DNA from: a virus
Taxonomy: Duplodnaviria > Heunggongvirae > Uroviricota > Caudoviricetes
DNA length: 23,325 bases
IMG/VR virus record: IMGVR_UViG_2585427734_000005
Direction: 5' to 3' (one strand)
The notes under the pieces were generated by a model that saw only the letters and a list, made by a program, of their open reading frames with translations, searched no databases and was not told the origin of the DNA. Position numbers and translations under genes: made by a program. Below are positions 1,985 to 21,106 of this stretch, in pieces. Every line of letters begins with the position of its first letter. The stretch's first letter is position 1.

Positions 1985-2794
1985 TTATTCCTCTGAATTA
2001 TCGATTACACTGTATTCCCCGGTTAATACAGAGGAATCTGCAGGATCGATTGTCAGTGGTTCCTTTTCATCCATTGATACTGCACGCTGGATCTCAATTG
2101 ATACGGGCAAATATTTGAACAGGCGACGAATAGCCGTTTTCTTTGCCATTTCTTCCCAGTGAGTTACCCACGGCCCGTTATTACCAGCTTTACTCAGGCT
2201 GCGCACCAGCTCAATCTGTTTGCGCGTCATAACTTCAAACTGAGTACCTCCGTCTTTCAGTCTTGCGACAGCATAGACGTGGGTAACCGGGGCATCTTCG
2301 TTTTCTCCCGGGCGGTGTATTAACTTTTCATCAAGGCCAAATTCGAAGCTAAACTCGTCACCTTCACGGACAACACGGGCTGACAGGCTGGCGATTTGAC
2401 CAGAACGGCGAGCCAGATCAATCATGCCGCGATAGCCAATGATTAGCTGAACGTTCTTTTTACCGCTCTTTTCGTTTTTATTACCAAAAGGCAGTAAATA
2501 TGCATGACCGAGGGCGCTACCTGGCTCAAGTCCGAGCTGTGAACACTGTACGATCGCACTGACAAAACTCATAGTGTCACAGTTTCCTAACGCCGGAACT
2601 TTACGAATTTCTGTGGTGGCGATACGGATCATACGTTCAGCCGTCATATGGCGTGGAAGAGCTGCTGCCAGTTGCTCTTTCATTGATGGCTGGTTAATAA
2701 AACTAATCACGTCGCTATTTTTAACTGCTGCTGGTGCACGGTTTCCCTGAGTTTTTTGCAGATCGGCTTTTGCGATTGGTGGTTGCTTAGTCAT
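1985..2794 (-). CDS. recT: Recombinase RecT (single-strand annealing protein), 269 aa
   Basis: Translation from the ATG at 2792-2794 (AAGGAA SD upstream) gives [55 protein letters not shown]..., matching RecT. It overlaps the recE stop by 8 nt, as in the known recET operon. Confidence 0.95.
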
Positions 2795-4172
2795 TTGCAT
2801 ATTCCTTAGCCCAGCGGGGCAGTGATAATGTCTTAATAGCTGGCCATTCATCGGTATTCAGGCAGTCAGACAGGGTTCGCAGATTGCGGTGATATTCCTG
2901 TTGACCTGCCAGTTTTGCTTCTTCGCCCATCATGAAAATTTCAACCGGATAACGTCCGCATTCAATAGTTGTGCTGGCAACCAGAAAAACGAAAGTTGGC
3001 TGCACTCCAAACTGTGCTTCATAACCGTCACTGTAGAATGCATCCTGAACGTGATAGCGGTAGTCGTAATAAGCGGTTTTGAATCGTTGAATATCCGCCG
3101 TAGTTTTCACGTCCATGATCCAGTGAAATTCAGGGATAATTTTGTCCGGACGGCACCGACACAAAATTCCTGTTTCAGGATCTTCCCAGTAAATTGATGA
3201 TTCAGCGTGTCCGGCGCTTTCAACAAGCCATTGCCCCAGCGGCAAAGCCATAACGCTTTGATACATGAGTTCAATTTTCCGGCCTTCTTCCGCAGTGATA
3301 ACCGTTTTTCCTGTGCTTGCGCATTCCATCAGAAACGCTTTCTCTTCTTCTTTTCCGGCGTTTGTACGGCGGTTAAATTCAGGTGCTACGATAAAGCGGT
3401 TACTGAATTCTTCCGGTTCAAGTACCCGGCAGTGGAAAGCAGTTCCTAAATCGAGCGTTTTTGTCTTTGTGGTGTCCACGGGGGCATTTTTACGCCACAA
3501 ATATAGTGCCGGAGTATCAGCAATGTCATCGAGCTGAGACTTACTGATACCGGGACCCGCGTGGTAATTCTCATTCGAAATTCCGTAATAAATACCTGGC
3601 TCTATGTCTTCTACGATTACGGGATCTGCGACTTCGCCAGTTTCATCACTGCAATCGCGATGCGGATCGCTGCCAGCATTCTCATTGTGCGGATGTTCAG
3701 CGCCTTCCATTTCCTCCGGATCATTTTCCTTAGCTTCAACCTGACTCTCTTCATCGAATGTTTCCTGGTATGTTGCGTCGCCCATCACCGCACCACAGTC
3801 AGGGCAGTTATCCCCGCCAGTCTGGCCGCAGGCATTGCAGGCTATTTCCGGTTCCTGTTGCACTACTGGCTCAGGTTGATTCATATCCGGGCTGGTTTTT
3901 TCCGTTTCTGGCTGGTTCTGGTACACACAATCGCGAGTCTGGATCCCCTTTACCCATTTCGGATCGTTCGGGTCGCTAATTCCGTCAACAAATTCATCAC
4001 GTGATGCAGCAAGCAATTTATCGGCATCGACAGGATTTTTTGATGGAATGTTTTTCCGGGCTTTATGGAGTTCTGCCCGCAGTTCCTGATATTTCGCATC
4101 AACAGAATTTACCTGTGACTGAGCATCCAGCGGCTGCGTGTCCTGATGATGTTCAGTTGCGTCCGGTTCCAT
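2787..4172 (-). CDS. recE: recE 3' portion: ORF for the C-terminal 461 aa of exonuclease VIII (contains the nuclease domain)
   Basis: Minus-strand ORF starting at ATG 4170-4172, preceded by GGGAGAGG at an 8-nt spacing. The protein ([15 protein letters not shown]...[10 protein letters not shown]) matches the RecE C-terminal region. The frame upstream of the ATG reads ...[23 protein letters not shown], which is also RecE-like. Confidence 0.7.
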
Positions 4173-4984
4173 TGTTTCAGCCTCTCCCTGTTCAACTGCC
4201 GTTGTTCCAGATGGTTGCGGTTTTTCTTCATCATCCTGTTTCCGCCGCCAGCATTAGCACCGGAAGCCGTGCGAGTGATGTGTGAAACACGATTACCCTT
4301 CATCCACTCTTTTGTCAGCAGTCCTCGATCGGTGTAGTCAGCGTTCAGGTATGCTTCGAAAAAAGCAGTTATCAGTCCCAGGTTTGAATTACCAGGATTA
4401 GGGAAAACTTTGTCAGTGTCACGAACCAGTTTGTGGAGTTCGCGAATTTCCAGCGGGTCGAGCAGGCTGGTTTTGTGGGAAACAGCCAGGGCAGTAACAG
4501 CCGGTAGTTCTTCAGCCCGAGCAATGTGTAATGCCTGGAGTCCGTCGCGTGAAACGTGCGTTACCGGTTTTTCGCTGCCGTGTTGAGCAAGCCAACGAAT
4601 GGGCAGTTCCTGGCCAGAAATTGGGAGTAGCATATTCTCCTCAATCTCAGTCATGTCTTCGCCGTTGACGTTGGTATTGCCTTGATAGTGAGCGTTGTCT
4701 GGTGCTGCTCCCGGTTTTAGTTCCCATGTCATGGAGTCTTTGCTGAGTTGATAGCGTTCACTCCAGGTAAAATCGATCTCACCTTCAGCGGGCAGGTCAT
4801 TAACGACAGGAAAATTCGTGGCAACAGCTTTAAAATAGCTGCTCAGTTTTTTACCTGACTTAACGATCAGGTAGTCCAGAGTGGCACAGGTCGATTCAAA
4901 ATCGTTGCTTGCCCACAGGACGACGTCAGGTTCACCGGATGATTTTTTCGCTTTCCGTAACAGGAAGAGTGGTTTTGTGCTCAT
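4109..4984 (-). pseudogene. recE: recE 5' fragment: RecE N-terminal ~249 aa, then a frameshifted 42-codon tail
   Basis: ORF from ATG 4982-4984 gives [30 protein letters not shown]...[10 protein letters not shown] (RecE N-terminus), then runs out of frame relative to the downstream RecE ORF. The whole recE span (2787-4984) is 2198 nt against 2601 nt for the 866-codon K-12 gene. Confidence 0.7.
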
Positions 4985-5827: not shown

Positions 5828-6268
5828 AATTATCTCCATTTTTACAAATGAACTTTGTTGATGCGGTGCCTGGTGCCTCCAGGTGACTGCAACCAGTTAA
5901 CAATTACAGTCGGCTTTCCCACCCAAACCAATAAGGACTAACATGACTTTTAACTGTGCCACGTGCGCTTAGCCGCATTCACCGCATCACAAAATTCACT
6001 TTAAAAAGGGCGGACATCAGCCGAACTTCAAGAAAAAAACTGATGCCGCCAGGACTACACACAGCAATGTCGTTATTTACAACCGGAGGCGCACTCCCAC
6101 CATTTAAATTTAACAGACAAGACCGACTCTTTATGGATATCGGAAATGCGCCTTCGTGTTGTGCCCGGTTTTATTTCACCACCTCCGGGCTTCGGTGGTC
6201 TCGGCTATACCCCTACAGCGAGAGCTTGTGTTAACATTTCAATACCCTTACAGTTGAGAGTTATTGAT

Positions 6269-8590: not shown

Positions 8591-9661
8591 ATGGCTAACG
8601 CCTGGCTCAGATTATGGCATGACATGCCAAATGACCCTAAGTGGCGAACAATTGCCAGGGTGTCAGGACAGCCAATTGCAACAGTGATGGCAGTGTATAT
8701 CCACCTCCTGGTGAGCGCGTCACGAAATGTCACGCGAGGTCACATTGATGTCACGACAGAAGATTTGGCAAGTGCGCTCGACGTGACAGAAGAGGTAATT
8801 GATTCAATTTTGCAGACGATGCAGGGGCGGGGACTTGATGGTGATTTAATCACTGGATGGGAAAAACGCCAGGTGCTTAAAGAGGACAACGGCAATATTT
8901 CGCAAACCGCAAAATCTCCTGCAGAGCGCAAGAGGGCGCAGCGAGAGAGGGAAAGAAAGCGGGAACAAAATGGCGATTGTCACGGCGCGTCACGAAATGT
9001 CACGCACATGTCACGACGAGTCACGACAGATAAAGATACAGATAAAGATACAGATCAAGAAGATCAAAACACTATGGTCCATGGCGTAAAAAACGCCACG
9101 AACCAGGCAGGGGATGTTCAGACCGTCAATCTTGGTCAGCCAGCAGGCACGACACCGGAAGCCGATTCAGCGTATGCGCTGAAAGCCGATTCGGGCGCTG
9201 TGCAGCAGGTGATGACCGCAAGGGCGGAGCAATCACACCAACTGCAGCAGCCTGAAGCCGATTCCGCCATTCAGCGGGAAGCCGATCGGGTAGTCCCGGA
9301 AAACACCGGGCAGTCTGTGGGACGAGTGGATTATCCGGATGTGTTCGAACAGGTCTGGCGGGAGTACCCGTTGCGTGCTGGGGCAAACCCGAAGAAATCC
9401 GCTTTCAGTGCCTGGAAGGCCAGATTACGCGAGGGGGTGCCACCAGAGGCCATGCTGGATGGCGTGAGGCGTTACGCAAGATACTTGGCGGCTACCGGGA
9501 AAACGGGAACGGAATTTGTTCAGCGAGCGACGACGTTTTTTGGACCGGACCGGAATTTTGAGAACCCCTGGTTGCTCCCGGTAAGCGGCACGAACAACCA
9601 GCGTTGTGTGAATCATATTTCTGAACCGGATAACGAAATTCCGCCGGGCTTCAGGGGGTAA
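8591..9661 (+). CDS. Replisome organizer / replication initiator (lambda O-like, YdaU-like), 356 aa
   Basis: ATG at 8591 preceded by AAGAGGTGA. The N-terminus (MANAWLRLWHDMPNDPKWRTIARV) fits the phage replisome-organizer N-terminal pattern. The gene carries iteron arrays and an AT-rich tract that encode a low-complexity linker (SRNVT..., DKDTDKDTDQEDQ). Confidence 0.65.
   Translation: MANAWLRLWHDMPNDPKWRTIARVSGQPIATVMAVYIHLLVSASRNVTRGHIDVTTEDLASALDVTEEVIDSILQTMQGRGLDGDLITGWEKRQVLKEDNGNISQTAKSPAERKRAQRERERKREQNGDCHGASRNVTHMSRRVTTDKDTDKDTDQEDQNTMVHGVKNATNQAGDVQTVNLGQPAGTTPEADSAYALKADSGAVQQVMTARAEQSHQLQQPEADSAIQREADRVVPENTGQSVGRVDYPDVFEQVWREYPLRAGANPKKSAFSAWKARLREGVPPEAMLDGVRRYARYLAATGKTGTEFVQRATTFFGPDRNFENPWLLPVSGTNNQRCVNHISEPDNEIPPGFRG
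8719..8755. repeat. Iteron array 1: four GTCACR repeats at about 10-bp spacing
   Basis: GTCACG at 8719, 8729 and 8750 and GTCACA at 8739, inside the replisome-organizer ORF. Confidence 0.6.
8979..9072. repeat. Iteron array 2 (five GTCACG repeats at about 10-bp spacing) plus adjacent AT-rich tract: putative replication origin
   Basis: GTCACG at 8979, 8989, 8999, 9010 and 9020, followed by GATAAAGATACA x2 and an A/T-rich tract (9031-9072). This mirrors the iteron plus AT-rich layout of ori-lambda inside O. Confidence 0.55.
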
Positions 9662-9701: not shown

Positions 9702-10124
9702 GTGGCAAAAGTTTTTACACAAGAAGAGCGGGAAAAAATTAAAGGGCAGGTTCTTGAACTCGTACGCCAGAGTGGGCGCGAGACGTTACGACAACTGGAA
9801 GCTAAAACTGGGGCAACAAGATATCTGATGAGCGTTCTGGCCAGAGAGCTGGTTGCCAGTGGCGATGTATACAATTCTGGCTACGGGTTATTCCCGTCTG
9901 AACAGGCTCGTAAAGACTGGCAAAATGCCCGCAAAAAATTATCGAGGGCAAAGCTGAAGAAACCGGTTGTGGTTGATCCGGACCTTATCTGGTCATTACC
10001 TGACGGAGAAATACGTCGCTACGACAGTCGCCTAAACATAATCTGTCGCGAGTGCCGGAAGAGCGAAGTTATGCAGCGCATATTGTCGTTTTATCAGGGG
10101 GATGTTCGGTATTTATTGAAGTGA
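9702..10124 (+). CDS. Hypothetical phage protein, 140 aa (possible DNA-binding protein)
   Basis: ORF starting at GTG 9702, 4 nt after AGGAGG (9692-9697). Basic and Cys-containing (CRECRK) C-terminal region. No homolog recognised from memory. Confidence 0.45.
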   Translation: MAKVFTQEEREKIKGQVLELVRQSGRETLRQLEAKTGATRYLMSVLARELVASGDVYNSGYGLFPSEQARKDWQNARKKLSRAKLKKPVVVDPDLIWSLPDGEIRRYDSRLNIICRECRKSEVMQRILSFYQGDVRYLLK

Positions 10125-10192
10125 CGAGATTAAAGTGCATTAGTTCAGATGCAAATTGACATTTTGTGGCACAGGGTAGAGCTAGCGTGGTT

Positions 10193-10218
10193 GTCCGCTT
10201 TGTGCCAAGAGCAGACGC
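10193..10218. repeat. Hairpin repeat copy A (GTCCGCT-N10-AGCAGAC)
   Basis: 7-bp stem with one mismatch and a 10-nt loop TTGTGCCAAG, in the intergenic region upstream of the BCCT transporter gene. One of three related copies. Confidence 0.5.
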
Positions 10219-10458
10219 TGGTAATTCGTGCCTAATATACTTCACTTAACTTATATCCCAGCTTTGATACAGATCATACAAATTAAATGCCCCAGTAATT
10301 GGCAGGCTGAGTAACTTAAAACTCCTTAGAATATAGGATGATTTGTATCGGCACTCATTCCACCATGCATTCCGATTAACCCCGCATAGCCAGTTGAACT
10401 TTGCTACTCTGTGAGAGGTAGTACCTTCTATCCAGTGCGGATTTAATTAATGGAATAA

Positions 10459-12462
10459 ATGATTATGAGTGAAAATGATACAACCCCAAAGAAGTCTACA
10501 AGCCAGATTAACAAAGCGGTATTCTTTACATCTGCTTTGCTAATTTTCCTTCTTGTCGCCTTTGCCGCCGTATTCCCGGATGTCGCCGACAAAAATTTTA
10601 AACTACTTCAGCAACAAATCTTCACGAATGCCAGCTGGTTCTACATACTTGCTGTGGCCCTGATTTTACTGAGCGTCACGTTCCTTGGACTCTCACGTTA
10701 CGGTGATATAAAGCTGGGCCCAGACCATGCGCAGCCTGATTTCAGCTACCACTCCTGGTTCGCGATGCTTTTTTCGGCAGGGATGGGGATCGGCCTGATG
10801 TTCTTTGGCGTTGCCGAACCTGTGATGCATTATCTTTCGCCACCTGTCGGCACTCCAGAGACCGTTGCGGCAGCGAAGGAAGCCATGCGCCTGACGTTCT
10901 TCCACTGGGGTCTGCACGCATGGGCAATTTATGCCATCGTGGCGCTGATTCTGGCCTTTTTCAGTTACCGTCACGGTCTGCCTTTAACGCTGCGTTCTGC
11001 GCTCTATCCCATTATCGGCGATCGCATTTACGGGCCTATAGGCCACGCGGTTGATATCTTCGCCGTGATAGGCACTGTCTTTGGCGTTGCAACATCGCTG
11101 GGTTACGGTGTATTGCAGGTGAATGCCGGTTTGAACCATCTTTTCGGCGTGCCCATCAATGAAACGGTACAGGTCATTTTGATCGTGGTCATCACGGGGT
11201 TAGCGACGATTTCGGTGGTGTCCGGCCTGGACAAGGGAATACGCATCCTGTCTGAGCTTAATCTGGGCCTGGCGGTGTTGCTCCTGGCGCTGGTCTTGTG
11301 CCTGGGTCCCACTGTGCTTCTGCTGAAGTCATTTGTGGAAAATACGGGTGGTTATTTGTCGGAACTGGTGAGTAAAACGTTCAACCTTTACGCGTATGAA
11401 CCCAAGTCGAGCAACTGGCTGGGGGGCTGGACATTATTATACTGGGGATGGTGGCTTTCATGGTCGCCGTTTGTAGGTATGTTCATTGCACGCGTTTCCC
11501 GCGGCAGGACAATTCGTGAGTTCGTGACTGGCGTGTTGTTTGTTCCCGCCGGCTTTACGCTCATGTGGATGACGGTGTTTGGAAACAGCGCCATCTATCT
11601 CATCATGAACCAGGGCGCCACTGACCTCGCCAATACCGTTCAGCAGGATGTTGCGCTTGCCCTGTTTAATTTCCTGGAGCATTTCCCGTTCTCTTCCGTG
11701 CTGTCATTCATTGCAATGGCGATGGTCATCGTCTTCTTTGTAACGTCTGCTGATTCGGGGGCAATGGTTGTGGATACTCTGGCATCAGGTGGGGTGGCAA
11801 ACACGCCCGTCTGGCAGCGAATTTTCTGGGCATCGCTCATGGGCGTTGTTGCTATTGCCCTGCTGATCGCAGGGGGGCTGAGTGCGTTGCAAACCGTAAC
11901 GATAGCGAGTGCATTGCCCTTCTCAGTTATCTTATTAATATCCATATACGGACTGTTAAAAGCCCTGCGTCGGGATTTGACCAAGCGTGAAAGCCTTAGC
12001 ATGGCGACTATTGCTCCTACGGCTGCACGTAACCCAATTCCCTGGCAGAGAAGGTTACGCAATATCGCGTATTTGCCGAAGCGCTCTCTTGTGAAACGTT
12101 TTATGGACGACATTATCCACCCCGCCATGACGCTGGTTCAGGAGGAACTTAACAAGCAGGGAACGATAAGCCACATCAGTGACGCCGCCGAGGATCGTAT
12201 TCGCCTTGAAGTCGATTTGGGCAACGAGCTGAATTATATATATGAAGTGAGGCTTCGCGGGTATAACTCACCGACCTTCGCGCTCGCTGCGCTGGATAAT
12301 GATGAGCAGCAGAGTGAACAACATCGATATTATCGCGCTGAAGTCTATCTCAAAGAGGGCGGCCAAAATTATGATGTAATGGGCTGGAATCAGGAACAGC
12401 TGATTAATGACATACTGGACCAGTACGAAAAACACCTGCACTTCCTGCATCTGGTTCGTTAA
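10459..12462 (+). CDS. betU: BCCT-family osmolyte transporter (BetT/BetU-like), 667 aa
   Basis: Strong similarity throughout to E. coli BetT as recalled (for example WxxWWxxWSPFVGMFIARVSRGRTIREF, SADSG, ...DILDQYEKHLHFLHL). The 667-aa length and position in a Rac-like prophage suggest the BetU variant; the gene symbol is less certain than the family call. Confidence 0.85.
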   Translation: MIMSENDTTPKKSTSQINKAVFFTSALLIFLLVAFAAVFPDVADKNFKLLQQQIFTNASWFYILAVALILLSVTFLGLSRYGDIKLGPDHAQPDFSYHSWFAMLFSAGMGIGLMFFGVAEPVMHYLSPPVGTPETVAAAKEAMRLTFFHWGLHAWAIYAIVALILAFFSYRHGLPLTLRSALYPIIGDRIYGPIGHAVDIFAVIGTVFGVATSLGYGVLQVNAGLNHLFGVPINETVQVILIVVITGLATISVVSGLDKGIRILSELNLGLAVLLLALVLCLGPTVLLLKSFVENTGGYLSELVSKTFNLYAYEPKSSNWLGGWTLLYWGWWLSWSPFVGMFIARVSRGRTIREFVTGVLFVPAGFTLMWMTVFGNSAIYLIMNQGATDLANTVQQDVALALFNFLEHFPFSSVLSFIAMAMVIVFFVTSADSGAMVVDTLASGGVANTPVWQRIFWASLMGVVAIALLIAGGLSALQTVTIASALPFSVILLISIYGLLKALRRDLTKRESLSMATIAPTAARNPIPWQRRLRNIAYLPKRSLVKRFMDDIIHPAMTLVQEELNKQGTISHISDAAEDRIRLEVDLGNELNYIYEVRLRGYNSPTFALAALDNDEQQSEQHRYYRAEVYLKEGGQNYDVMGWNQEQLINDILDQYEKHLHFLHLVR

Positions 12463-12469
12463 CAGCAAC

Positions 12470-12498
12470 ATGCCGCCACAGAGGCGGCATTTATTTAT
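12470..12498 (+). terminator. Rho-independent terminator downstream of the BCCT transporter gene
   Basis: Perfect 8-bp stem ATGCCGCC/GGCGGCAT with loop ACAGA, followed by TTATTTAT, 8 nt after the stop codon. Confidence 0.6.
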
Positions 12499-12525
12499 CC
12501 CGGCTGCAATATGAGGGAATGCAGA

Positions 12526-13803
12526 ATGATTTCACGCTGGAAATGGATGCTGAAGCAGACATTTAAAAAACTATGGTTCAGGGCAACGTTATTCGCAATT
12601 GTCGCAATAATAACGGCCCTTTTATCAATTCTTTTTAAATCAATGATACCTGAGTCGGTTTCCGTGAAGGTTGGTGCGGAAGCAGTCGATAACATTCTGA
12701 ACATACTGGCATCGAGTATGCTGGCAGTGACCACATTTTCGCTGAGCATCATGGTCACAGCCTACGGTTCAGCCACTACTAATGTGACTCCCAGAGCTAC
12801 TCGTTTAGTTGTTGAAGACGTCACCACACAAAATGTACTGGCCACCTTCATCGGTTCTTTTCTCTTCAGTCTGGTAGGGATTATTGCTCTCAATATGGGA
12901 GCTTATGGAGAAAGGGGGAGAGTCATTTTATTCATTGTAACACTGGTTGTCATTGCCTTAATCCTCATCACATTGCTTCGCTGGATACAGCATTTGACCT
13001 CTCTGGGGAGGGTTGGTGAGACAACGGCAAAAGTAGAACAGGCGGCCATCGAAACATTTATTGCGAGAGCAAGAAATCCCTGTCTCGGCGGATATCCATG
13101 GCTTGAGAACAATGAACAGCCGAAAGGAACGGTTGCAGTTTATCCGAAAAAGATTGGCTATGTTGAATATGTTGATATGGTGAAACTCAGCAAGCTGCTG
13201 ACCAATGATCCCCGTCATGTATACCTCGTGGCGCAGCCGGGCAGTTTCATACATCCGTCCACGCCAGTTTTGTACCTGAGTCAGGGCCAGGAGTCATCAA
13301 TCAGCACCGATTTACTTGAGACGATTATTGTCTCGGATGTACGTTCATTTGCTCAGGACCCCCGATTTTGTCTTAGCGTCATGGCCGAAATAGCCTGCCG
13401 AGCCCTTTCCCCCGCAGTGAACGATCCTGGAACCGCCATTGATGTCATTGGCAGAGGTGTACGTATACTTTCCGCTTACGCGCAGAATAAATCTGATGAA
13501 ATAGAAGTGAAATATCCTTCTGTACATGTTGCACCACTTCAGAATAACGATCTACTTGAAGACTTTTTCTCACCTGTTGCGCGCGATGGTGCCAGTATGA
13601 GGGAAATTCAGATAAGGGTACTTAAAGGACTGTCGATGCTGAGTAAGGGTTGGCCTGGAATTTTTGCTGAAGCCGCACAAACCCTAGCATTTGAAACATT
13701 AGAGCATGCTACTCGTGCTGACCATATAGATTCTGACAGATATCTAATAAAATCAATTTATTATAATTTATTTAGTGGCGAAGATTCTAATAAAAAACCA
13801 TAG
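12526..13803 (+). CDS. Hypothetical membrane protein, 425 aa (N-terminal transmembrane segments plus large soluble domain; possibly DUF2254-like)
   Basis: ATG at 12526 preceded by GAGGGAA at a 6-nt spacing (an alternative ATG at 12511 has no SD). Hydrophobic N-terminal half and a long C-terminal domain. The family assignment is a tentative recollection. Confidence 0.6.
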   Translation: MISRWKWMLKQTFKKLWFRATLFAIVAIITALLSILFKSMIPESVSVKVGAEAVDNILNILASSMLAVTTFSLSIMVTAYGSATTNVTPRATRLVVEDVTTQNVLATFIGSFLFSLVGIIALNMGAYGERGRVILFIVTLVVIALILITLLRWIQHLTSLGRVGETTAKVEQAAIETFIARARNPCLGGYPWLENNEQPKGTVAVYPKKIGYVEYVDMVKLSKLLTNDPRHVYLVAQPGSFIHPSTPVLYLSQGQESSISTDLLETIIVSDVRSFAQDPRFCLSVMAEIACRALSPAVNDPGTAIDVIGRGVRILSAYAQNKSDEIEVKYPSVHVAPLQNNDLLEDFFSPVARDGASMREIQIRVLKGLSMLSKGWPGIFAEAAQTLAFETLEHATRADHIDSDRYLIKSIYYNLFSGEDSNKKP

Positions 13804-13863
13804 TTGCGGAGCAAGCGATACGGTTGTTGGCAAGTCAAGGGCAAAGCATTCGCGTGAGAGTGG

Positions 13864-13889
13864 GCGTCTGCTTTGTGCCAGAAGCGGAC
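13864..13889. repeat. Hairpin repeat copy B (GCGTCTGCT-N10-AGCGGAC)
   Basis: 7-bp stem with one G-U-compatible mismatch and loop TTGTGCCAGA (nearly identical to the copy A loop), between the convergent membrane-protein and LysR genes. Confidence 0.5.
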
Positions 13890-13933
13890 ATACGTAACTT
13901 ATGATACGCATCGCCAATCATCCGTTTCAAACA

Positions 13934-14815
13934 TCAACGCGGAAACGTTTTAAGAATGTAATCCCGAACATAGGCGGTTCGGCTGTTATTAGCCGTCCTT
14001 TTGTTCCAGACCAGATAAAGATGATTAGTCGGAGCGAGGTCTGCAGGTGTCACTGAAATCAGGCGACCACTTTTCAGGTCATTGTCACAGTGATAATCCG
14101 GCAGCACTGTCCACCCGTGGCCGTCACAGACCAAGTCGCGGATAATACGTAAATCCGGAATGGTGAATGTAGCCTGCATCTCAGGGGCTCTCTGAAACAT
14201 GGAGGCCCAGAGCGCTCTAATCAGTGGCAACTCTTCGTCATAAGCAATCAGCGGTAATGAGGCAAGCGTTTCAGCACCAGGTTCTGATCCGATGATCTCT
14301 GACATGGCGGGAGCATGAACAAGGAGCATGCGTTCAGTCAGTAGATGTGCATAGCCGTACAGACGGTCATCAGGCATAGATGTGGTAACAGCGAGATCGG
14401 CGCTCCCGTCATGCAAAAGGGAATAAATACGTTGCTTATTGCCGGTATGAAAGCGTAGGCGATACCCCTCCTTCATTAGTGGAGCCATTACTGTCCCAAG
14501 CCGGGAATGAATAAAATCTGGCGGTCCTGCCAGATTAATTGTTCCCCCGCGTACAGAGCCTGACCGGAAAGAGGACAGCTTTTCTTCCAGACCATCAATG
14601 AAGGGTGAAACTGAGCGGGCAAGCTCATCCGCAGCTTCGGTTGCCGTCACGCCTCTGGCCTGCCTGATAAACAGACGCTTACCAACCAGAGTCTCAAGAG
14701 ACTGGATATGCTGTGACGCCGCGGGCTGAGTGATGCCCAGTAGTTCTGCCGCCTTTGAAAAGGAGCCAGAGCGATAGGCCTCAAGAAACGTTCGCAGATG
14801 GCTCAGATGGCTCAT
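13934..14815 (-). CDS. LysR-family transcriptional regulator, 293 aa
   Basis: N-terminal HTH typical of LysR-type regulators (MSHLSHLRTFLEAYRSGSFSKAAELLGITQPAASQHIQSLE) with a C-terminal substrate-binding-like domain. The ATG overlaps the upstream gene's stop (ATGA). Confidence 0.9.
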   Translation of the reverse strand: MSHLSHLRTFLEAYRSGSFSKAAELLGITQPAASQHIQSLETLVGKRLFIRQARGVTATEAADELARSVSPFIDGLEEKLSSFRSGSVRGGTINLAGPPDFIHSRLGTVMAPLMKEGYRLRFHTGNKQRIYSLLHDGSADLAVTTSMPDDRLYGYAHLLTERMLLVHAPAMSEIIGSEPGAETLASLPLIAYDEELPLIRALWASMFQRAPEMQATFTIPDLRIIRDLVCDGHGWTVLPDYHCDNDLKSGRLISVTPADLAPTNHLYLVWNKRTANNSRTAYVRDYILKTFPR

Positions 14816-15504
14816 AGTGAAGCGCCTCGCTGATGAAGTTTATCGTTACAGGGAGCCTCATGCAGAGCAAGGGCCAGTTCACTCACGTAATCATCCCGTA
14901 TTCCCAACGCACCCAGAGTGGCCTGCAGTTTCCATACATAATCTGCATTCGTGCCAATGTCTCCACGGGCAGATGCGATGCTCAACGCTACGGTCGCTGT
15001 AAGATTGTCCTGTTCATAATGCGGATGCAGTCTGTCTGATACGAAAGCCAGCGCCTGAATTTCCTCACCGTTTCCTAGCGAAACGTCTGCCCAGACCGGA
15101 CGGTAAAGACCGGTTATCATCTCGCGCGTCCAGACAATTTCCAGCTCATTAATAAGAGTCGATTCCGGCAGTCTGAACGCAATACCTTCGGTAATTCCAC
15201 CTTCGTCGAGCGATAACATCCTGCCGGGGACATCAGGAGTCGCTCGTCCGGATATCAAACGAATGCAGAAACTGCGCTGCCATCCTTTCAGACGGGCCCG
15301 TTGCATTTCTTCAATCGCCAGCACGGGATTCCACATCAATGACCCGTAGGCAAATATCCAGACAGGAGCACCCGTCGGGCGCTCCTCCAGAGTAGAGTTC
15401 ATTGATGCGCGTATTTTTTCAGCGTCCCAGAGCATATTCGCCGGGAGCAGCGCTTCATGCACCCTGACAAATGTGCCATTAAGCATATTTTCACGGGTAA
15501 GCAT
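14812..15504 (-). CDS. ChaC-like gamma-glutamylcyclotransferase family protein, 230 aa
   Basis: Contains the ChaC/GGCT hallmark VWIFAYGSLMWNP and overall similarity to E. coli ChaC as recalled. GGGAGGT SD upstream of the ATG at 15502-15504. Confidence 0.85.
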   Translation of the reverse strand: MLTRENMLNGTFVRVHEALLPANMLWDAEKIRASMNSTLEERPTGAPVWIFAYGSLMWNPVLAIEEMQRARLKGWQRSFCIRLISGRATPDVPGRMLSLDEGGITEGIAFRLPESTLINELEIVWTREMITGLYRPVWADVSLGNGEEIQALAFVSDRLHPHYEQDNLTATVALSIASARGDIGTNADYVWKLQATLGALGIRDDYVSELALALHEAPCNDKLHQRGASL

Positions 15505-15515
15505 ATAACCTCCCT

Positions 15516-16716
15516 TTACTGGCCTACGATTTTAACCTGTTGAAATTTACGACTGTGGCTGCGACGGATTTGTGCAAGCAGCAACAGCAGGCCGAGCAGA
15601 GAAACAATCGCACCGCTGATACCGGTATACACGATACCGGCGTGGCTTATAGTAATGCTGCCCAGTACTGATCCCAGCGCTATACCTGAGTTGAAGCCCG
15701 CAATATTCAGGCCGGCAGCAACACCATGCGCATGAGGAGCATGTTGCTCAGCGACACCAATCAGACGGGCCTGCAGTGCCGGCACTGCGGCAAATGTCAC
15801 CATACCCAGCAGCGCAACCACAATGCCCATGCTCACCGGTGAGGATGACAGCAGCCACATACCAAGCACGACAACAACAATGCCGCTAATGATGAGTATA
15901 TTGGCACGATTAACCCCCATGCTGTCGGTAAGTTTCCCACCAAGAATATTACCTACCGCAGCTGTAATACCGTAAACCAGCATAAACAGACTCACCGTTG
16001 CTCCGGTAACCCCTGTCACCTGCGTCAGAATAGGTGCGATAAAGGTGTAAGCCGTAAACGAGCCTGCATACGCCAGCACCGTAACCAGCGCGCCGGCCAG
16101 CAACTTACGGTTAAACAGCATGCCGATATTCTGCATTGCTGAGTCACTATGTTCACCGGGCACGCTGCGTACGGGATCTTTCATACCGAACAACAGTCCA
16201 AGGAATCCGAACGCGCCAAAAGCGGCAATAGCGCCGAGAACTGGACGCCATGAGACCCCCCCCCCCCAACCATGTACTCAGCGGTACGCCGATTGCCATC
16301 GCCAGAGTAAAGCCACCAAATACCACAGCCACCGCTCTGCCTGCTTTACCCGGTCCAGCAAGACGAGCTGCGGTACTGGATGCCGCAGCCAGAAACAGGC
16401 CGTGTCCCAGACCAGCAATGAACCGCGCTAACAGGAGCTGAGGTAATGTGGCTGCAAACGCGGCCGCCAGACTACCGGCAGTAAACACAACGGCAGTTGT
16501 AAGCATTACATTTTTCCGGCTCCAGCTTGCTGTCAGCGCAGACAGTACGGGTGCCGCGAACGTTGCCCCCAGTGCATAGGTTGTAACCGCTGCCCCGGTC
16601 TGCTCCACACCCACACACAACCCCTGAGCCATAACGTCTGTCAGCCCAATGGGGACAAATTCCGCGAGTCCGAGCGCAAAGGCACTGATAGTAAACACAT
16701 AAATAACAAATGGCAT
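15516..16716 (-). pseudogene. MFS transporter (DHA1/YdhP-AraJ-like), split into two ORFs by a frameshift at a C12/G12 homopolymer
   Basis: N-terminal ORF 16153-16716 (AGGAG SD, 12 nt after a TM-rich start MPFVIYVFTISAFALGLAEF...) and C-terminal ORF 15516-16193 are both MFS-like with multiple TM helices. The frames switch at the 12-C run at 16256-16267. Confidence 0.8.
16256..16267. repeat. Homopolymeric tract C12 (G12 on the coding strand) at the MFS frameshift site
   Basis: Twelve consecutive C residues counted directly in the sequence. Confidence 0.9.
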
Positions 16717-16932
16717 GACTGGCTCCTGATTTAAGTAAGGAGTGCAGTCTGATTTAGAAAAACAGATAAATAAAATAATGTAAACTTCAGGCGGGATAAA
16801 ATTATTTATATCTAAGGCAAAGATTCAATATTCCCACAGCACACAGAAGTTTTCTGTCTTCAGGGAGAGGAGCTTCGAAAGTTCAGACGAAAAATTCCTG
16901 CGGCCCCTTTAAGAGTCAGTTGGCCGGGTTTG

Positions 16933-16956
16933 GTCCGCTCCTCGCTCAAAGCGGAC
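16933..16956. repeat. Hairpin repeat copy C (GTCCGCT-N10-AGCGGAC)
   Basis: Perfect 7-bp inverted repeat with a 10-nt loop CCTCGCTCAA, in the intergenic region between the MFS start and the hok locus. Confidence 0.5.
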
Positions 16957-17135
16957 TAGAAGGTTAGCTTGCGTCGGACTTGGCGTATTTAAAGAAGTGC
17001 TGGTGGTGACTGGTTGTTGTGTTCCATTTCTACAGAACAAAATCACAGAAACTATACCCAATAGTTATATTGAATCAATGATGAGACAGCCTCATATTTA
17101 TCAGAACTGGTGTACGTCCAATACAGGAGGTTGTC

Positions 17136-17225: not shown

Positions 17226-17309
17226 TTTTATATTGGCGAGGTGACGGGAGTTAAGTAGAATTGCTGCGGGTGCTTGAGGCTATCTGCCTCAGGCATGAAC
17301 ACCAAAGGC

Positions 17310-17388
17310 AGATAGAGAAAAGCCCCAGTTAACATTACGCGTCCTGCAAGACGCTTAACATTAATCTGAGGCTCAATCTATGAACGGC
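17310..17388 (-). ncRNA. Putative Sok-like antisense RNA of the hok locus
   Basis: Minus-strand promoter: -35 TTGCCT (plus 17418-17423), 17-bp spacer, -10 TAACCT (plus 17395-17400), same layout as the R1 Sok promoter as recalled. The transcript would be antisense to the hok leader and end at a GCGTC/GACGC hairpin followed by a U-rich run. Boundaries are approximate. Confidence 0.35.
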
Positions 17389-17436
17389 AAATCTAGGTTA
17401 GCCTCTTACGTGCCGAAAGGCAAGGAGAAGCAGGCT

Positions 17437-17592
17437 ATGAAGCAGCAAAAGGCGATGTTAATCGCCCTGATCGTCATCTGTTTAACCGTTATAGTGACGG
17501 TACTGGTAACGAGGAAAGACCTCTGCGAGGTACGAATCCGAACCGACCAGACGGAGGTCGCTGTCTTCACAGCTTACGAACTTGGGGAGTAA
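17437..17592 (+). CDS. hokD: Hok-family type I toxin (HokD/RelF-like), 51 aa
   Basis: MKQQKAMLIALIVICLTVIVTVLVTRKDLCEVRIRTDQTEVAVFTAYELGE is near-identical to HokD/RelF as recalled. AAGGAG SD at 17422-17427, an upstream in-frame mok-like ORF from 17380, and a 3' hairpin GCGGGGA-GAAA-TCCCCGC (17601-17618). Confidence 0.8.
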   Translation: MKQQKAMLIALIVICLTVIVTVLVTRKDLCEVRIRTDQTEVAVFTAYELGE

Positions 17593-19590: not shown

Positions 19591-20527
19591 ACGTCAGGAA
19601 AGCAGGGGAGAATGCTGCTAGTTGGGCAACTGGTCTTTCTGCTCCAAATTATAACAGAGACCAGTTATAGTTTCGGTGCTGTGTTTTTTTTACAATATTG
19701 TGATAACACATTGCTGGCGGGAGTTTTGATATTTCTTGGCAGGGGCTGATGATGCGTTATCCTGATGTCGTCAACTCATATAAAATGAGATGAGAGATCA
19801 TTGCAGGGTGGTTTGTAATTCGCTGTTTAGCGGGACAATATGTTGTCTGATACAAGACACCCGACGCCTCAGATTACTATAATAAAGATGAAGCATCCTT
19901 TGTATTGACCAACCACCTGTTTAGGCGGTTCTTTTTGGGCTGGTTTATTGTATGCAAAATGATTATTAAAAAGGTTGTGTTAATAACAAAATCCGAAATA
20001 ATATGCCTGCATATTTTTATCTTGCTTATATTCTGCATATTGTGCATAGCAGGCTCATCCCTGCAATCAAAACTGTATGATGAGTATTTTTTGTTTTCCT
20101 TTTTTCCAGTCATCTGATGATGACCTGCTTCTTTTTAATCCGGATCGACATCAGTTTTTTAAGATAATTCCTGCGAGTTATATGCATAAATGCCACAAAC
20201 TCCGCATTTTATGTGGTTGGGAGTTGCCGGGCGCGCAGTGAGTTTGCTAAGAAAACTCCTGCATGGTGAATCCCCCTGTGCGGTGGGGTGATACCATTAA
20301 CCTTTTCTGTCGCCGACAGGTATCACGAACATTTTGTTCACCGGGAGGCACCCGGCACCATGCACTTCAATAGATTCTCTCCACATTATGGATATTCTTT
20401 CAGAATATCCCACGCAGACTTTGTGTAAATGTTAACAAATGTGCGTTTTATTTGATCTGATTCGCTGTTTGAGCGTCCAAAACAACGGTATATATAATCC
20501 TTTACTATATGACATATGTGAGGAAAA

Positions 20528-20956: not shown

Positions 20957-21106
20957 TATTTATTGTTTTGTAATAAACGGTTTCGGCTTAGGTTTGTTCT
21001 GACACAGCTACGGCACTGAGCTAAATTTAGCGGATAGTCAGCTCTGAGCCAGTGGCGGACGTAACAACTACTATTGCTGAGATTTTAATGGATTGAGGAG
21101 CAAGAA

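Follow-up and report, generated by a model that had tools for sequence, protein, structure and literature searches.

The stretch of DNA analysed here, referred to as the window (23,325 nucleotides), is a Rac-like (lambdoid) E. coli prophage that carries intR, recET, ralR/RalA, DUF977 and hok/sok. The prophage IntR is the only tyrosine recombinase annotated in the window and its flanks. A slot between the DUF977 replication-region gene and hok/sok holds a 6.7-kb island, which is composed of two independently acquired cassettes. Cassette 1 (10208-13880, plus strand) encodes a BCCT transporter (10459-12462) and a DUF2254 membrane protein (12511-13803), as annotated by RefSeq in identical DNA, and its ends are the 3′ half of one hairpin site (site A) and the 5′ half of a second (site B). 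Cassette 2 (13881-16941, minus strand) encodes, again by RefSeq annotation, a LysR-type regulator (13934-14815), a gamma-glutamylcyclotransferase (GGCT; 14812-15504) and a frameshifted MFS transporter (15516-16716). The cargo of the window consists of transport and metabolic genes, with no known defence genes among them.

Sequence of the hairpin sites

Three exact matches to the pattern GTCYGCTN10AGCRGAC are present in the window, at 10193-10216 (site A), 13866-13889 (site B) and 16933-16956 (site C), and allowing one mismatch adds no further match there. Not one of 100 dinucleotide-preserving shuffles contained the pattern, which bears out the statement of the preliminary description that three structured repeats of this kind are improbable by chance. 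The coordinates given there are exact for site C, but the end of A (10218) and the start of B (13864) each take in two flanking bases. Every site is 24 bp long, and an asymmetric centre of 10 nt lies between its two inverted arms of 7 bp, GTCYGCT and AGCRGAC. Two classes are distinguished by their loops, type 1 (TTGTGCCA) and type 2 (TTGAGCGA). With a slash between the halves, site A (plus strand, type 1) reads GTCCGCT-TTGTGCCA/AG-AGCAGAC and joins the backbone on the DUF977 gene side to cassette 1, while site B (plus strand, type 1), a direct repeat of A, reads GTCTGCT-TTGTGCCA/GA-AGCGGAC and joins cassette 1 to cassette 2. The near-identity of their loops reported earlier is evident (TTGTGCCAAG in A, TTGTGCCAGA in B), as is the placing of the stem mismatch on opposite arms, since at position 4/21 A has a C.A mismatch and B a T.G pair. 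Site C (minus strand, type 2) reads GTCCGCT-TTGAGCGA/GG-AGCGGAC and connects the backbone, on its hok/sok side, with cassette 2; its minus-strand form, GTCCGCT-TTGAGCGAGG-AGCGGAC, has a loop related to those of A and B, and GTCYGCTTTGNGCNNNNAGCRGAC is a consensus that covers all three sites when C is read on this strand.

A fourth, degenerate copy (GTCAGCTCTGAGCCAGTGGCGGAC) lies at 21037-21060 on the plus strand, with three mismatches to the pattern where 0.01 matches were expected. It reads GTCAGCT-CTGAGCCAGT-GGCGGAC, is preceded by a leader CTGACA..GGCAC and lies upstream of an accessory gene with a TolA C-terminal domain, whose homology to pO157-type plasmids starts 17 nt past the site. When the window was scanned with a covariance model of the family (145 members), A, B, C and this degenerate site were the only ones found (E values of 5e-11, 1e-11, 5e-9 and 0.3, respectively).

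Sites A and C lie within a 37-nt inverted repeat, I1, which brackets the island and is 76% complementary. The backbone leader of site A (10156-10192, plus strand; TTGACA ... TGGCACAGGG ... AGCTAGCGTGGTT), which is kept in all Rac-type left flanks, belongs to this repeat, as does, on the right, the backbone flank of site C (16957-16969, minus strand; TAGAAGGTTAGCT), the inverted counterpart of the AGCTAGCGTGGTT left of site A. Several further structures were considered and rejected. Stem covariation was ruled out, as positions 4 and 21 assort independently among 94 distinct sites (CG 45, TG 32, CA 11 and TA 6), and the 4 bp flanking the sites pair only slightly above shuffles. A long (~120-bp) palindrome with the site as its tip was discarded, because the flanks on the two sides of a site match each other's complement no better than flanks paired at random. 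The TGGCACA 16 nt upstream of A complements the loop TGTGCCA, but the same leader precedes a type-2 loop in locus L038 and a leader complement to the loop is absent in most backbones. Lastly, a conserved cargo-side motif, RTTGCTAAC..GGGAGCAGGTCA, is followed by no consistent ORF and was dismissed as the ribosome-binding site of a shared first gene.

Junctions and cargo turnover

The suggestion that the hairpins could be boundaries of inserted cassettes proved well founded. In comparisons with relatives that lack the island or carry other cargo, homology is interrupted within the hairpins, with BLAST breakpoints clustered at 10207-10217, 13888-13891 and 16932-16942, and each cassette is found alone elsewhere. 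Alignment of the island boundaries against island-less genomes showed that the left site is retained and that homology is regained inside site C. At site A, the island-less loci L002 and L004, like many IMG/VR loci, cease to match the window at 10207-10217, and at site C homology with relatives restarts at 16932-16942, within the site. No fewer than 14 different cargos follow the upstream flank of site A and no fewer than 10 adjoin the backbone flank of site C, and the upstream flank of site B is followed by three different sequences in viral-contig loci and by a fourth in Enterobacter.

Both cassettes of the window occur in other combinations. Cassette 1 is followed by different cargo in L012, L036, L065 and L112, where homology stops at 13888-13891; its nearest relatives are in an Enterobacter prophage, and in a prophage of Enterobacter asburiae cassette 1 has the same site B and precedes a DUF2971 cassette. 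L114 carries the MFS end of cassette 2 (15322-16957) with 100% identity, directly next to a backbone flank of P2 type. Transfer is also seen for a 984-bp cassette present with 99.9% identity in L035, a Rac-like slot, and in L063, a P2-like one, although the outer flanks of the two slots are unrelated (28-30% identity); identity begins and ends within both sites, and the homology available on the type-2 side is at most 15 nt. The 269-aa protein of this cassette appeared HNH-like by eye, an assignment that was dropped as it has no Pfam or PADLOC match. Other slots carry TIR-TPR, SIR2, GmrSD, reverse transcriptase and radical SAM proteins, which are typical hotspot content, and the site is also present at other hotspots with defence genes. 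Neither the fetched loci nor IMG/VR contained an empty slot, with a type-1 half abutting an inverted type-2 half, and the ancestral junction of backbone and cassette 2 was absent from 5426 E. coli genomes.

Linkage of half-sites and pairing of site classes

The two parts of a site have separate associations. Among the 94 distinct sites, which were collected by exact pattern and many of which come from loci related by descent, the first 15 nt track the phage backbone and the last 9 nt track the cargo. Positions 4, 11 and 14 track the upstream flank (agreement 0.91, 1.00 and 0.91 vs a background of ~0.45), whereas positions 16, 17 and 21 are independent of it (0.42, 0.33 and 0.63, equal to background) and go with the downstream flank. 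Nucleotides 9-15 are identical among sites of one class, and a crossover can therefore be placed only to this interval.

The orientation and class of the sites follow a rule. Facing pairs consist of one type-1 and one type-2 site in 57 of 60 cases, and when slot types with different outer flanks are counted, 23 of 25 have a type-1 site and an inverted type-2 site around the cargo; facing sites of one class were found in none of the 60 pairs or 25 slot types. Arrays of two cassettes occur in two orders. The order type 1, cassette, type 1, cassette, inverted type 2 is seen in independent contexts (the window, L010 and L115), and in L026, L031 and L051 each of the two cassettes has its own type-1 site and inverted type-2 site. 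Swapping the 3′ halves of A and B restores two perfect palindromes, which gives the two sites the look of reciprocal hybrids. From the independent frequencies at positions 4 and 21, the chance expectation of this pattern is roughly 4%.

Interpretation

It is somewhat more probable than not, in our view, that each hairpin is one copy of a conserved recombination joint of 24 bp, which forms the border of exchangeable accessory-gene cassettes in temperate enterobacterial phages. The comparative data show where the joint lies, that the structure is modular, that cassettes have moved between unrelated phages, that type 1 is paired with type 2 by rule and that the sites are homologous to the P2 Z/fun repeats. 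The action of a dedicated site-specific enzyme, perhaps on a single-stranded, folded form of the site, is our inference. In such a scheme the backbone would keep two facing landing halves, one of type 1 (GTCYGCTTTGTGCCA) and one, inverted, of type 2 (GTCYGCTTTGAGCGA), and the cassette would supply the other halves (NN-AGCRGAC). Two sites with loops of one class would exchange by crossing over centrally, in nt 9-15. Replacement of a cassette would take two such crossovers, one at each end, and addition would take one crossover with a circular cassette bearing a single site, which would leave two directly repeated hybrid sites; A and B around the BCCT and DUF2254 genes match the arrangement that would be expected from such an addition.

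More tentatively, P2-like phages, Rac/lambdoid prophages, plasmids and other proteobacterial elements may share an undescribed system of cassette exchange, of a kind with integrons or pdif modules, for which the palindrome would be the site of crossover. Its two non-cross-recombining classes, with TTGTGCCA and TTGAGCGA centres, would stand head to head, its putative enzyme might be the host's own, working on a folded single strand, and it could be the missing mechanism behind antiviral hotspots. Among the ORFs around 120 genome loci and those flanking the phage loci, no gene for a recombinase recurs consistently with the sites. All-against-all clustering of the ORFs of the genome loci gave only a paralogous family of substrate-binding proteins, and the ORFs flanking the phage loci are backbone-specific.

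The lack of a linked recombinase counts against the main reading, as do the missing empty slot and the missing ancestral junction of backbone and cassette 2. The first of these is also in line with a rival that is possible though not favoured, in which the sites are the same joints, with no dedicated enzyme. The hairpin would then be kept for another function, for example as a stem-loop on transcripts entering the cargo, and shuffling would be a by-product of short-homology recombination at islands of 15-24 nt, through phage annealing proteins of the RecT/Red-beta type or RecA, a process already proposed for the PeSL units of T4-type phages described below. The window prophage encodes both RecT and RecE, and since the crossover is resolvable only to nt 9-15, short-homology recombination would leave the same footprint as a site-specific crossover. 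In 71 sites vs 19 the strand directed into the cargo has the better fold of the two (p = 3e-11), which points to a single-stranded, possibly RNA, form, and many backbones have a -35-like hexamer, TTGACA or CTGACA, some ~37-45 nt upstream. The accompanying -10 elements and spacing, however, are poor and not conserved, and the sites of the window fold with modest z-scores (-1.3 to -2.9). RNA stability elements, as proposed earlier, are conceivable; the strand bias is in their favour, but the folding itself is modest. Rfam gave no match at the sites at the gathering score, none across 10100-17100 at E <= 10, and none in 18 related loci. The sites also occur in P2-like phages, plasmids and chromosomes in which no RecET genes were seen, the homology of at most 15 nt on the type-2 side is very short for annealing-type recombination, and the strict pairing of type 1 with type 2 in the slot types is not demanded by a short-homology model.

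It is improbable that the site is a selfish or structural REP/MITE-like palindrome that spreads alone and lies at module borders only by chance, in intergenic DNA. Such a view draws on the Alphaproteobacteria (Pseudolabrys, Xanthobacteraceae and Bradyrhizobium), where near-identical 24-mers are abundant, with several co-oriented copies per few kb that are often composite double hairpins beside paralogous substrate-binding-protein genes. These related hairpins are high-copy and variable in loop length, and resemble a REP-type structural element more than a recombinase site. In E. coli, the REP/MITE-like family proposed in the preliminary description does not hold. Type-1 sites are present in 3716 of 5426 genomes, at a median of one and a maximum of six places per genome, on prophages and plasmids (231 places on plasmids), a number below the tens to hundreds of dispersed chromosomal copies of a REP/BIME. 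The flanks show no target duplication or longer palindrome, the palindrome score beyond the 24-bp core being equal to that of the control, which does not fit a MITE copied intact with terminal inverted repeats and a target-site duplication. Site halves with different histories, one of the backbone and one of the cargo, are also not expected of a repeat inserted intact.

Still less credence is given to intrinsic terminators or insulators that halt transcription at cassette borders. Site B does lie between convergent genes and the stems are G+C-rich, but a T-run is absent after all three copies, the better-folding strand reads into the cargo and not out of it, and a terminator scan that lists a classic terminator at 12470-12490 omits the hairpins. 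Operators for the island LysR-type regulator, or for another shared regulator as put forward in the preliminary description, are the least plausible, as the dyad symmetry of the sites, their position upstream of two transcription units and the LysR gene in the island are outweighed by a T-N10-A geometry (T-N11-A for LysR) with half-sites 17 bp apart centre to centre, by the position of site B at the 3′ ends of two genes, and by the presence of this site, in elements of P2-like, Rac-like and other kinds, beside hundreds of unrelated cargos that lack a LysR gene.

If the sites are recombination joints, they would provide a sequence tag for cargo slots and for accessory and defence genes in several unrelated prophage lineages, and would account for identical cassettes moving between phages that share no other homology. 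The mechanism of exchange at phage hotspots of antiviral systems has been stated to be unknown (Rousset et al. 2022), and the sites suggest a testable mechanism for the hotspot turnover left open by this recent work on P2/P4 defence hotspots. The strict two-class pairing resembles engineered cassette exchange, and may be exploitable if the enzyme is found.

Relation to known systems

Among the systems that the joint reading brings to mind, the REP/BIME share intergenic imperfect palindromes and, through the Alphaproteobacteria, numerous and composite relatives, but the window-type site occurs about once per E. coli genome, on mobile elements only, lacks the REP consensus and has halves with separate histories. 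PeSL (promoter-early stem-loop) units of T4-type phages, for which Arbiol and colleagues reportedly proposed module shuffling in 2010, are likewise said to be conserved stem-loop units flanking variable accessory ORFs in hyperplastic regions. They differ in belonging to virulent phages, in sequence and in a presumed homologous recombination between units, and the promoter role they have is putative at most for the sites of the window.

Integron attC sites are similar in being short imperfect palindromes between promoter-less or single-operon cassettes, in co-oriented arrays and with one strand that folds better, and a circle with a single site would integrate at a resident site to give hybrid sites. 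The three sites of the window, however, contain no R′′/R′ core motifs (RYYYAAC/GTTRRRY), and the locus has no IntI gene or attI site. Moreover, attC is variable in sequence whereas the window-type site is highly conserved, and the joint is in the centre of the palindrome here and at the base of the stem in attC, with the end sites inverted in the present case. Acinetobacter plasmids carry pdif modules in which, as in recombinase-mediated cassette exchange with heterospecific lox/FRT sites, two inverted, non-identical versions of a short palindromic site bracket the cargo; the modules occur in many backbones with junctions inside the sites. The present site nevertheless has no similarity to dif (11-6-11, compared with 7-10-7 here), and no XerC/D, Cre or other enzyme is implicated at the sites of the window.

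The nearest counterpart is the Z/fun locus of P2-like coliphages (GenBank AJ512683, AJ512677), around which, in P2, the hairpin repeat was first noted (Nilsson et al. 2004); a review's summary attributes to this study (Nilsson, Karlsson & Haggard-Ljungquist 2004, Mol Biol Evol 21:1) site-specific recombination at the repeats. Literature searched by sequence string and topic contained no description of the site beyond citations of this study, and the family is known but little studied. P2 itself has this site, and in P2-EC58 it lies within the left and right inverted repeats annotated for the Z region. The left core of P2-EC58 is GTCCGCTCTGTGCCATGAGCGGAC and the right core, on the other strand, is GTCTGCTTTGAGCGAAAAACAGAC; A and B differ from the left core, and C from the right, at few of the 24 positions, and a P2-type backbone was reached by BLAST of a flank recovered with the window motif. 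The leaders of site A and of the left inverted repeat are homologous (TGGCACAGRGTARAGC), that of P2-EC58 reading CTGACA..TGGCACAGAGTAAAGCCTAA..GTCCGCTCTGTGCCA. The sites of the window belong to the P2 Z/fun site family, in another phage lineage and slot. The P2 slot lies between genes G and FI, whereas that of the window is in a Rac-like prophage, holds two cassettes with an internal site and differs in its transport and metabolic cargo. Both have a fixed position in the backbone and inverted repeats around horizontally acquired genes, with type 1 on one side, inverted type 2 on the other and variable foreign genes between, and P2-like and Rac-type slots have actual cassettes in common.

Setting of the hairpins

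The window is a Rac-like E. coli prophage with intR, xisR, ralR and its RalA RNA (1557-1735), recT, recE (exodeoxyribonuclease VIII, 2787-4984), kilR and sieB; its later part runs from a replisome-organizer gene and a DUF977 gene through the island to hok/sok and the late genes. Cassette 1 of the island, on the plus strand, encodes a BCCT transporter and a DUF2254 protein; cassette 2, on the minus strand, encodes a LysR regulator, a gamma-glutamylcyclotransferase and an MFS transporter (15516-16716). Both recE and the MFS gene are frameshifted, each read as two overlapping ORFs, and are annotated by RefSeq as frameshifted pseudogenes in identical DNA. The RalA RNA, the sok antisense RNA adjoining hokD (17268-17442) and STnc100 (20231-20417) match Rfam above the gathering score. 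The whole island is present in about 296 of 5426 complete E. coli genomes, and its cargo gave no PADLOC hit. Elsewhere in the window, a 22-nt inverted repeat (91% complementary) joins 5865-5886 (GGTGCCTGGTGCCTCCAGGTGA), close to the kilR/sieB region, to 20338-20359 (TCACCGGGAGGCACCCGGCACC), within the STnc100 match, and could represent sRNA-target or regulatory pairing. GTCACG repeat clusters within the replisome-organizer gene (8719-9027; a 39-nt family in three copies) resemble origin iterons, which would belong to the prophage's replication module.

The hairpin motif GTCYGCT-N10-AGCRGAC, reported three times in the preliminary description, has exact matches at 10193-10216 (site A), 13866-13889 (site B) and 16933-16956 (site C), with loops and stem mismatches as described there; that three copies are unlikely by chance is borne out by 100 dinucleotide-preserving shuffles, which gave no match. 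On the minus strand, copy C reads GTCCGCT-TTGAGCGAGG-AGCGGAC, so that all three copies conform to GTCYGCTTTGNGCNNNNAGCRGAC. The island is bracketed by a 37-nt inverted repeat whose cores are sites A and C. A pattern scan of the window found a degenerate fourth copy at 21037-21060, and a covariance model of 145 family members recovered A, B, C and this copy, and no others. The fourth copy has the leader CTGACA..GGCAC; its neighbours are, on one side, a truncated tolA-like gene and, on the other, an accessory gene with a TolA C-terminal domain. For the latter, pO157-type plasmid homology begins 17 nt past the site, and in pO157 the gene lies directly after nikB.

Sites as cassette joints

Comparison with relatives supports the proposal that the hairpins are boundaries of inserted cassettes. 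Relatives with the same flanks and no island were retrieved using both flanks joined as the query. In strain A20, the left flank extends across site A, which is perfect there; 230 bases of unrelated DNA come next, and homology restarts at CGCTCAAAGCGGAC, within the site C loop; strain RM13745 shows the same break pattern around a different 0.8-kb cargo. A motif scan of viral contigs gave at least 120 stretches. In these, the site's first 15 nt group with the upstream flank into conserved families, and free variation begins at the last two loop bases and takes in the 3' arm and all downstream DNA. The Rac-type left site precedes at least 14 different cargos, and the hok-side site adjoins at least 10. 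BLAST breakpoints between the island and these loci fall at 10207-10217, 13888-13891 and 16932-16942. Cassette 1 is followed by other cargo in four comparison loci (L012, L036, L065, L112), and in another (L114) the MFS end of cassette 2, 100% identical, lies beside a different backbone. Therefore, the 6.7-kb island consists of two cassettes with site B as the joint between them. No empty slot was seen among the fetched loci or in IMG/VR, nor was an ancestral junction of backbone and cassette 2 in the 5426 E. coli genomes.

Joint mapping over 94 distinct sites, drawn from both viral and E. coli loci, places the change of flank within the site itself. Among 422 site pairs with the same upstream and different downstream DNA, taken from loci that are in many cases kin by descent and were gathered by exact pattern, so that invariant columns are partly built in, agreement at site positions 4, 11 and 14 was 0.91, 1.00 and 0.91 against a background of about 0.45, and at positions 16, 17 and 21 it was 0.42, 0.33 and 0.63 against 0.42, 0.37 and 0.71. 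These last positions track the downstream flank (six such pairs only). A 984-bp cassette is 99.9% identical between a Rac-type slot (L035) and a P2-type slot (L063), whose outer flanks share 28-30% identity, the random level. The identity starts past position 8 of the type-1 site and stops ahead of position 4 of the type-2 site, which places the crossover within nt 9-15, dyad centre included. This cassette encodes a 269-aa protein (L035 10769-11578, minus strand) with CxxC...DH...CxxC motifs, HNH-like by eye, that has no match in Pfam or PADLOC.

Loop classes and mechanism

By their loops, the sites divide into two classes, here called type 1 (TTGTGCCA) and type 2 (TTGAGCGA). Facing sites across cargo combine one of each in 57 of 60 distinct pairs and never belong to the same class; grouped by outer flanks, the 60 pairs represent 25 slot types, 23 combining both classes and two having an atypical loop. 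Arrays take the form t1>A t1>B <t2 in the window and two other loci (L010, L115), or t1>A<t2, a spacer of about 18 nt and t1>B<t2 (L026, L031, L051), where t1 and t2 are the classes and > and < the site orientation. We infer that type 1 and type 2 do not recombine with each other, much as heterospecific lox sites would behave. In the window, sites A and B are direct repeats, and exchanging their 3' halves abolishes both mismatches (C.A in A, T.G in B). Such a hybrid pattern would be expected after one crossover joining a circle that carries a single site to a resident site, and an excised cassette 1 circle would show the junction GTCTGCTTTGTGCCA+AGAGCAGAC; as a trace of crossover the mismatches are only suggestive, the chance expectation being roughly 4%.

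These features fit crossover sites for cassette exchange. We favour a dedicated site-specific reaction on three grounds: a sharp joint, strong conservation of the site among unrelated elements, and classes that are always paired head to head. Short-homology recombination could also yield the same joints, with the hairpin kept for another purpose, since same-class sites do not differ in the stretch by which the two could be told apart. For the dedicated reaction, no enzyme was found at the sites examined. At 71 of 94 phage sites the cargo-reading strand is the better-folding one, and at 19 the complement is (p = 3e-11 with RNA and 2e-6 with DNA parameters). The difference comes from positions 16, 17 and 21, which are G-rich and form G.T or G.U pairs, and it hints at a single-stranded form of the site.

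A genome-wide search of the kind suggested in the preliminary description, using the type-1 site, locates it in 3716 of 5426 E. coli genomes; the median is one place per genome, none has more than six, and 231 places are on plasmids. The REP/MITE-like family proposed there fails for REP in E. coli on this low copy number, and the shared regulator fails as a LysR operator, since the spacing is wrong and the sites accompany many cargos without a LysR gene; a terminator is dismissed by the absence of a T-tract after every copy, and a known RNA family by the absence of an Rfam match.

Range of the site

Backbone genes adjoining the sites include UmuC-like, SRAP and P2 gpA genes, and cargos include TIR-TPR, SIR2, GmrSD, reverse transcriptase and radical SAM proteins. 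Some cargos (L022, L040, L098, L011, L019, L017, L248 and others) open with about 50 further conserved nt, consisting of RTTGCTAAC, some 20 nt and GGGAGCAGGTCA, from which no consistent ORF starts. In the Qin prophage of K-12 W3110 (L248), a slightly degenerate site pair (3506-3529, 4497-4520) flanks ydfV-flxA beside relBE-hokD; the annotated ydfV ORF spans the left site. The closest DUF2254/BCCT relatives outside E. coli lie in an e14-like Enterobacter asburiae prophage, where the site-B equivalent leads into a DUF2971 cassette with a type-2 site at its far end. Upstream of BCCT in Enterobacter hormaechei (L253, ~4690-4715), a variant hairpin, GTCTTCT-TTTTGTTAGA-AGAAGAT, occupies the site A position; two adjacent stem pairs are altered on both sides and the palindrome is kept.

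A scan of one genome per species, whose listed matches are a lower bound, found near-identical 24-mers in many Alphaproteobacteria, Nitrosomonadaceae, Pseudomonas, Serratia, Pantoea, Klebsiella and Citrobacter, often as several co-oriented copies per few kb or as composite double hairpins. Among the matches listed, sites were co-oriented within the locus in 12 of 12 multi-site loci, a substrate-binding-protein paralogue was the most frequent neighbour and no recurrent recombinase lay beside the sites. The alphaproteobacterial loci (L128-L247, e.g. L139, L175, L191) carry a high-copy composite repeat, ATGTCCGCTTTACCCCCGAAAGCGGACAT, about 17 nt and ATGTCYGCTTTGKGCCAANAGCGGACAT, often just past the 3' end of a paralogous substrate-binding-protein gene (28 loci among the matches listed).

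Relation to the P2 Z/fun repeats

A second backbone family (…AATCTGACA-GTCTGCTTTGAGCGA) corresponds to P2-like phages, where the site lies between the FI tail-sheath gene, with the pF promoter, and the Z/fun locus. In the GenBank entries for P2-EC58 and P2-EC31, the Z-region ORF is flanked by features labelled 'left inverted repeat' and 'right inverted repeat', which contain GTCCGCTCTGTGCCATGAGCGGAC and, on the opposite strand, GTCTGCTTTGAGCGAAAAACAGAC; P2 itself has diverged copies. These entries accompany a paper by Nilsson, Karlsson and Haggard-Ljungquist (2004), whose content a review sums up as site-specific recombination at the repeats. The gpA context may match the second P2 hotspot. 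The variable loci of P2 and P4 were shown to be defence hotspots by Rousset et al. (2022); in their account the mechanism of exchange is unknown, and the repeats go unmentioned. The fixed joint, the two-class pairing and the cassettes common to phage families make the mechanism underlying the sites directly testable. Since the P2 repeats contain the same site, the hairpins of the window are members of an already known, little-studied family, the P2 Z/fun repeats, now in a Rac-like phage lineage.
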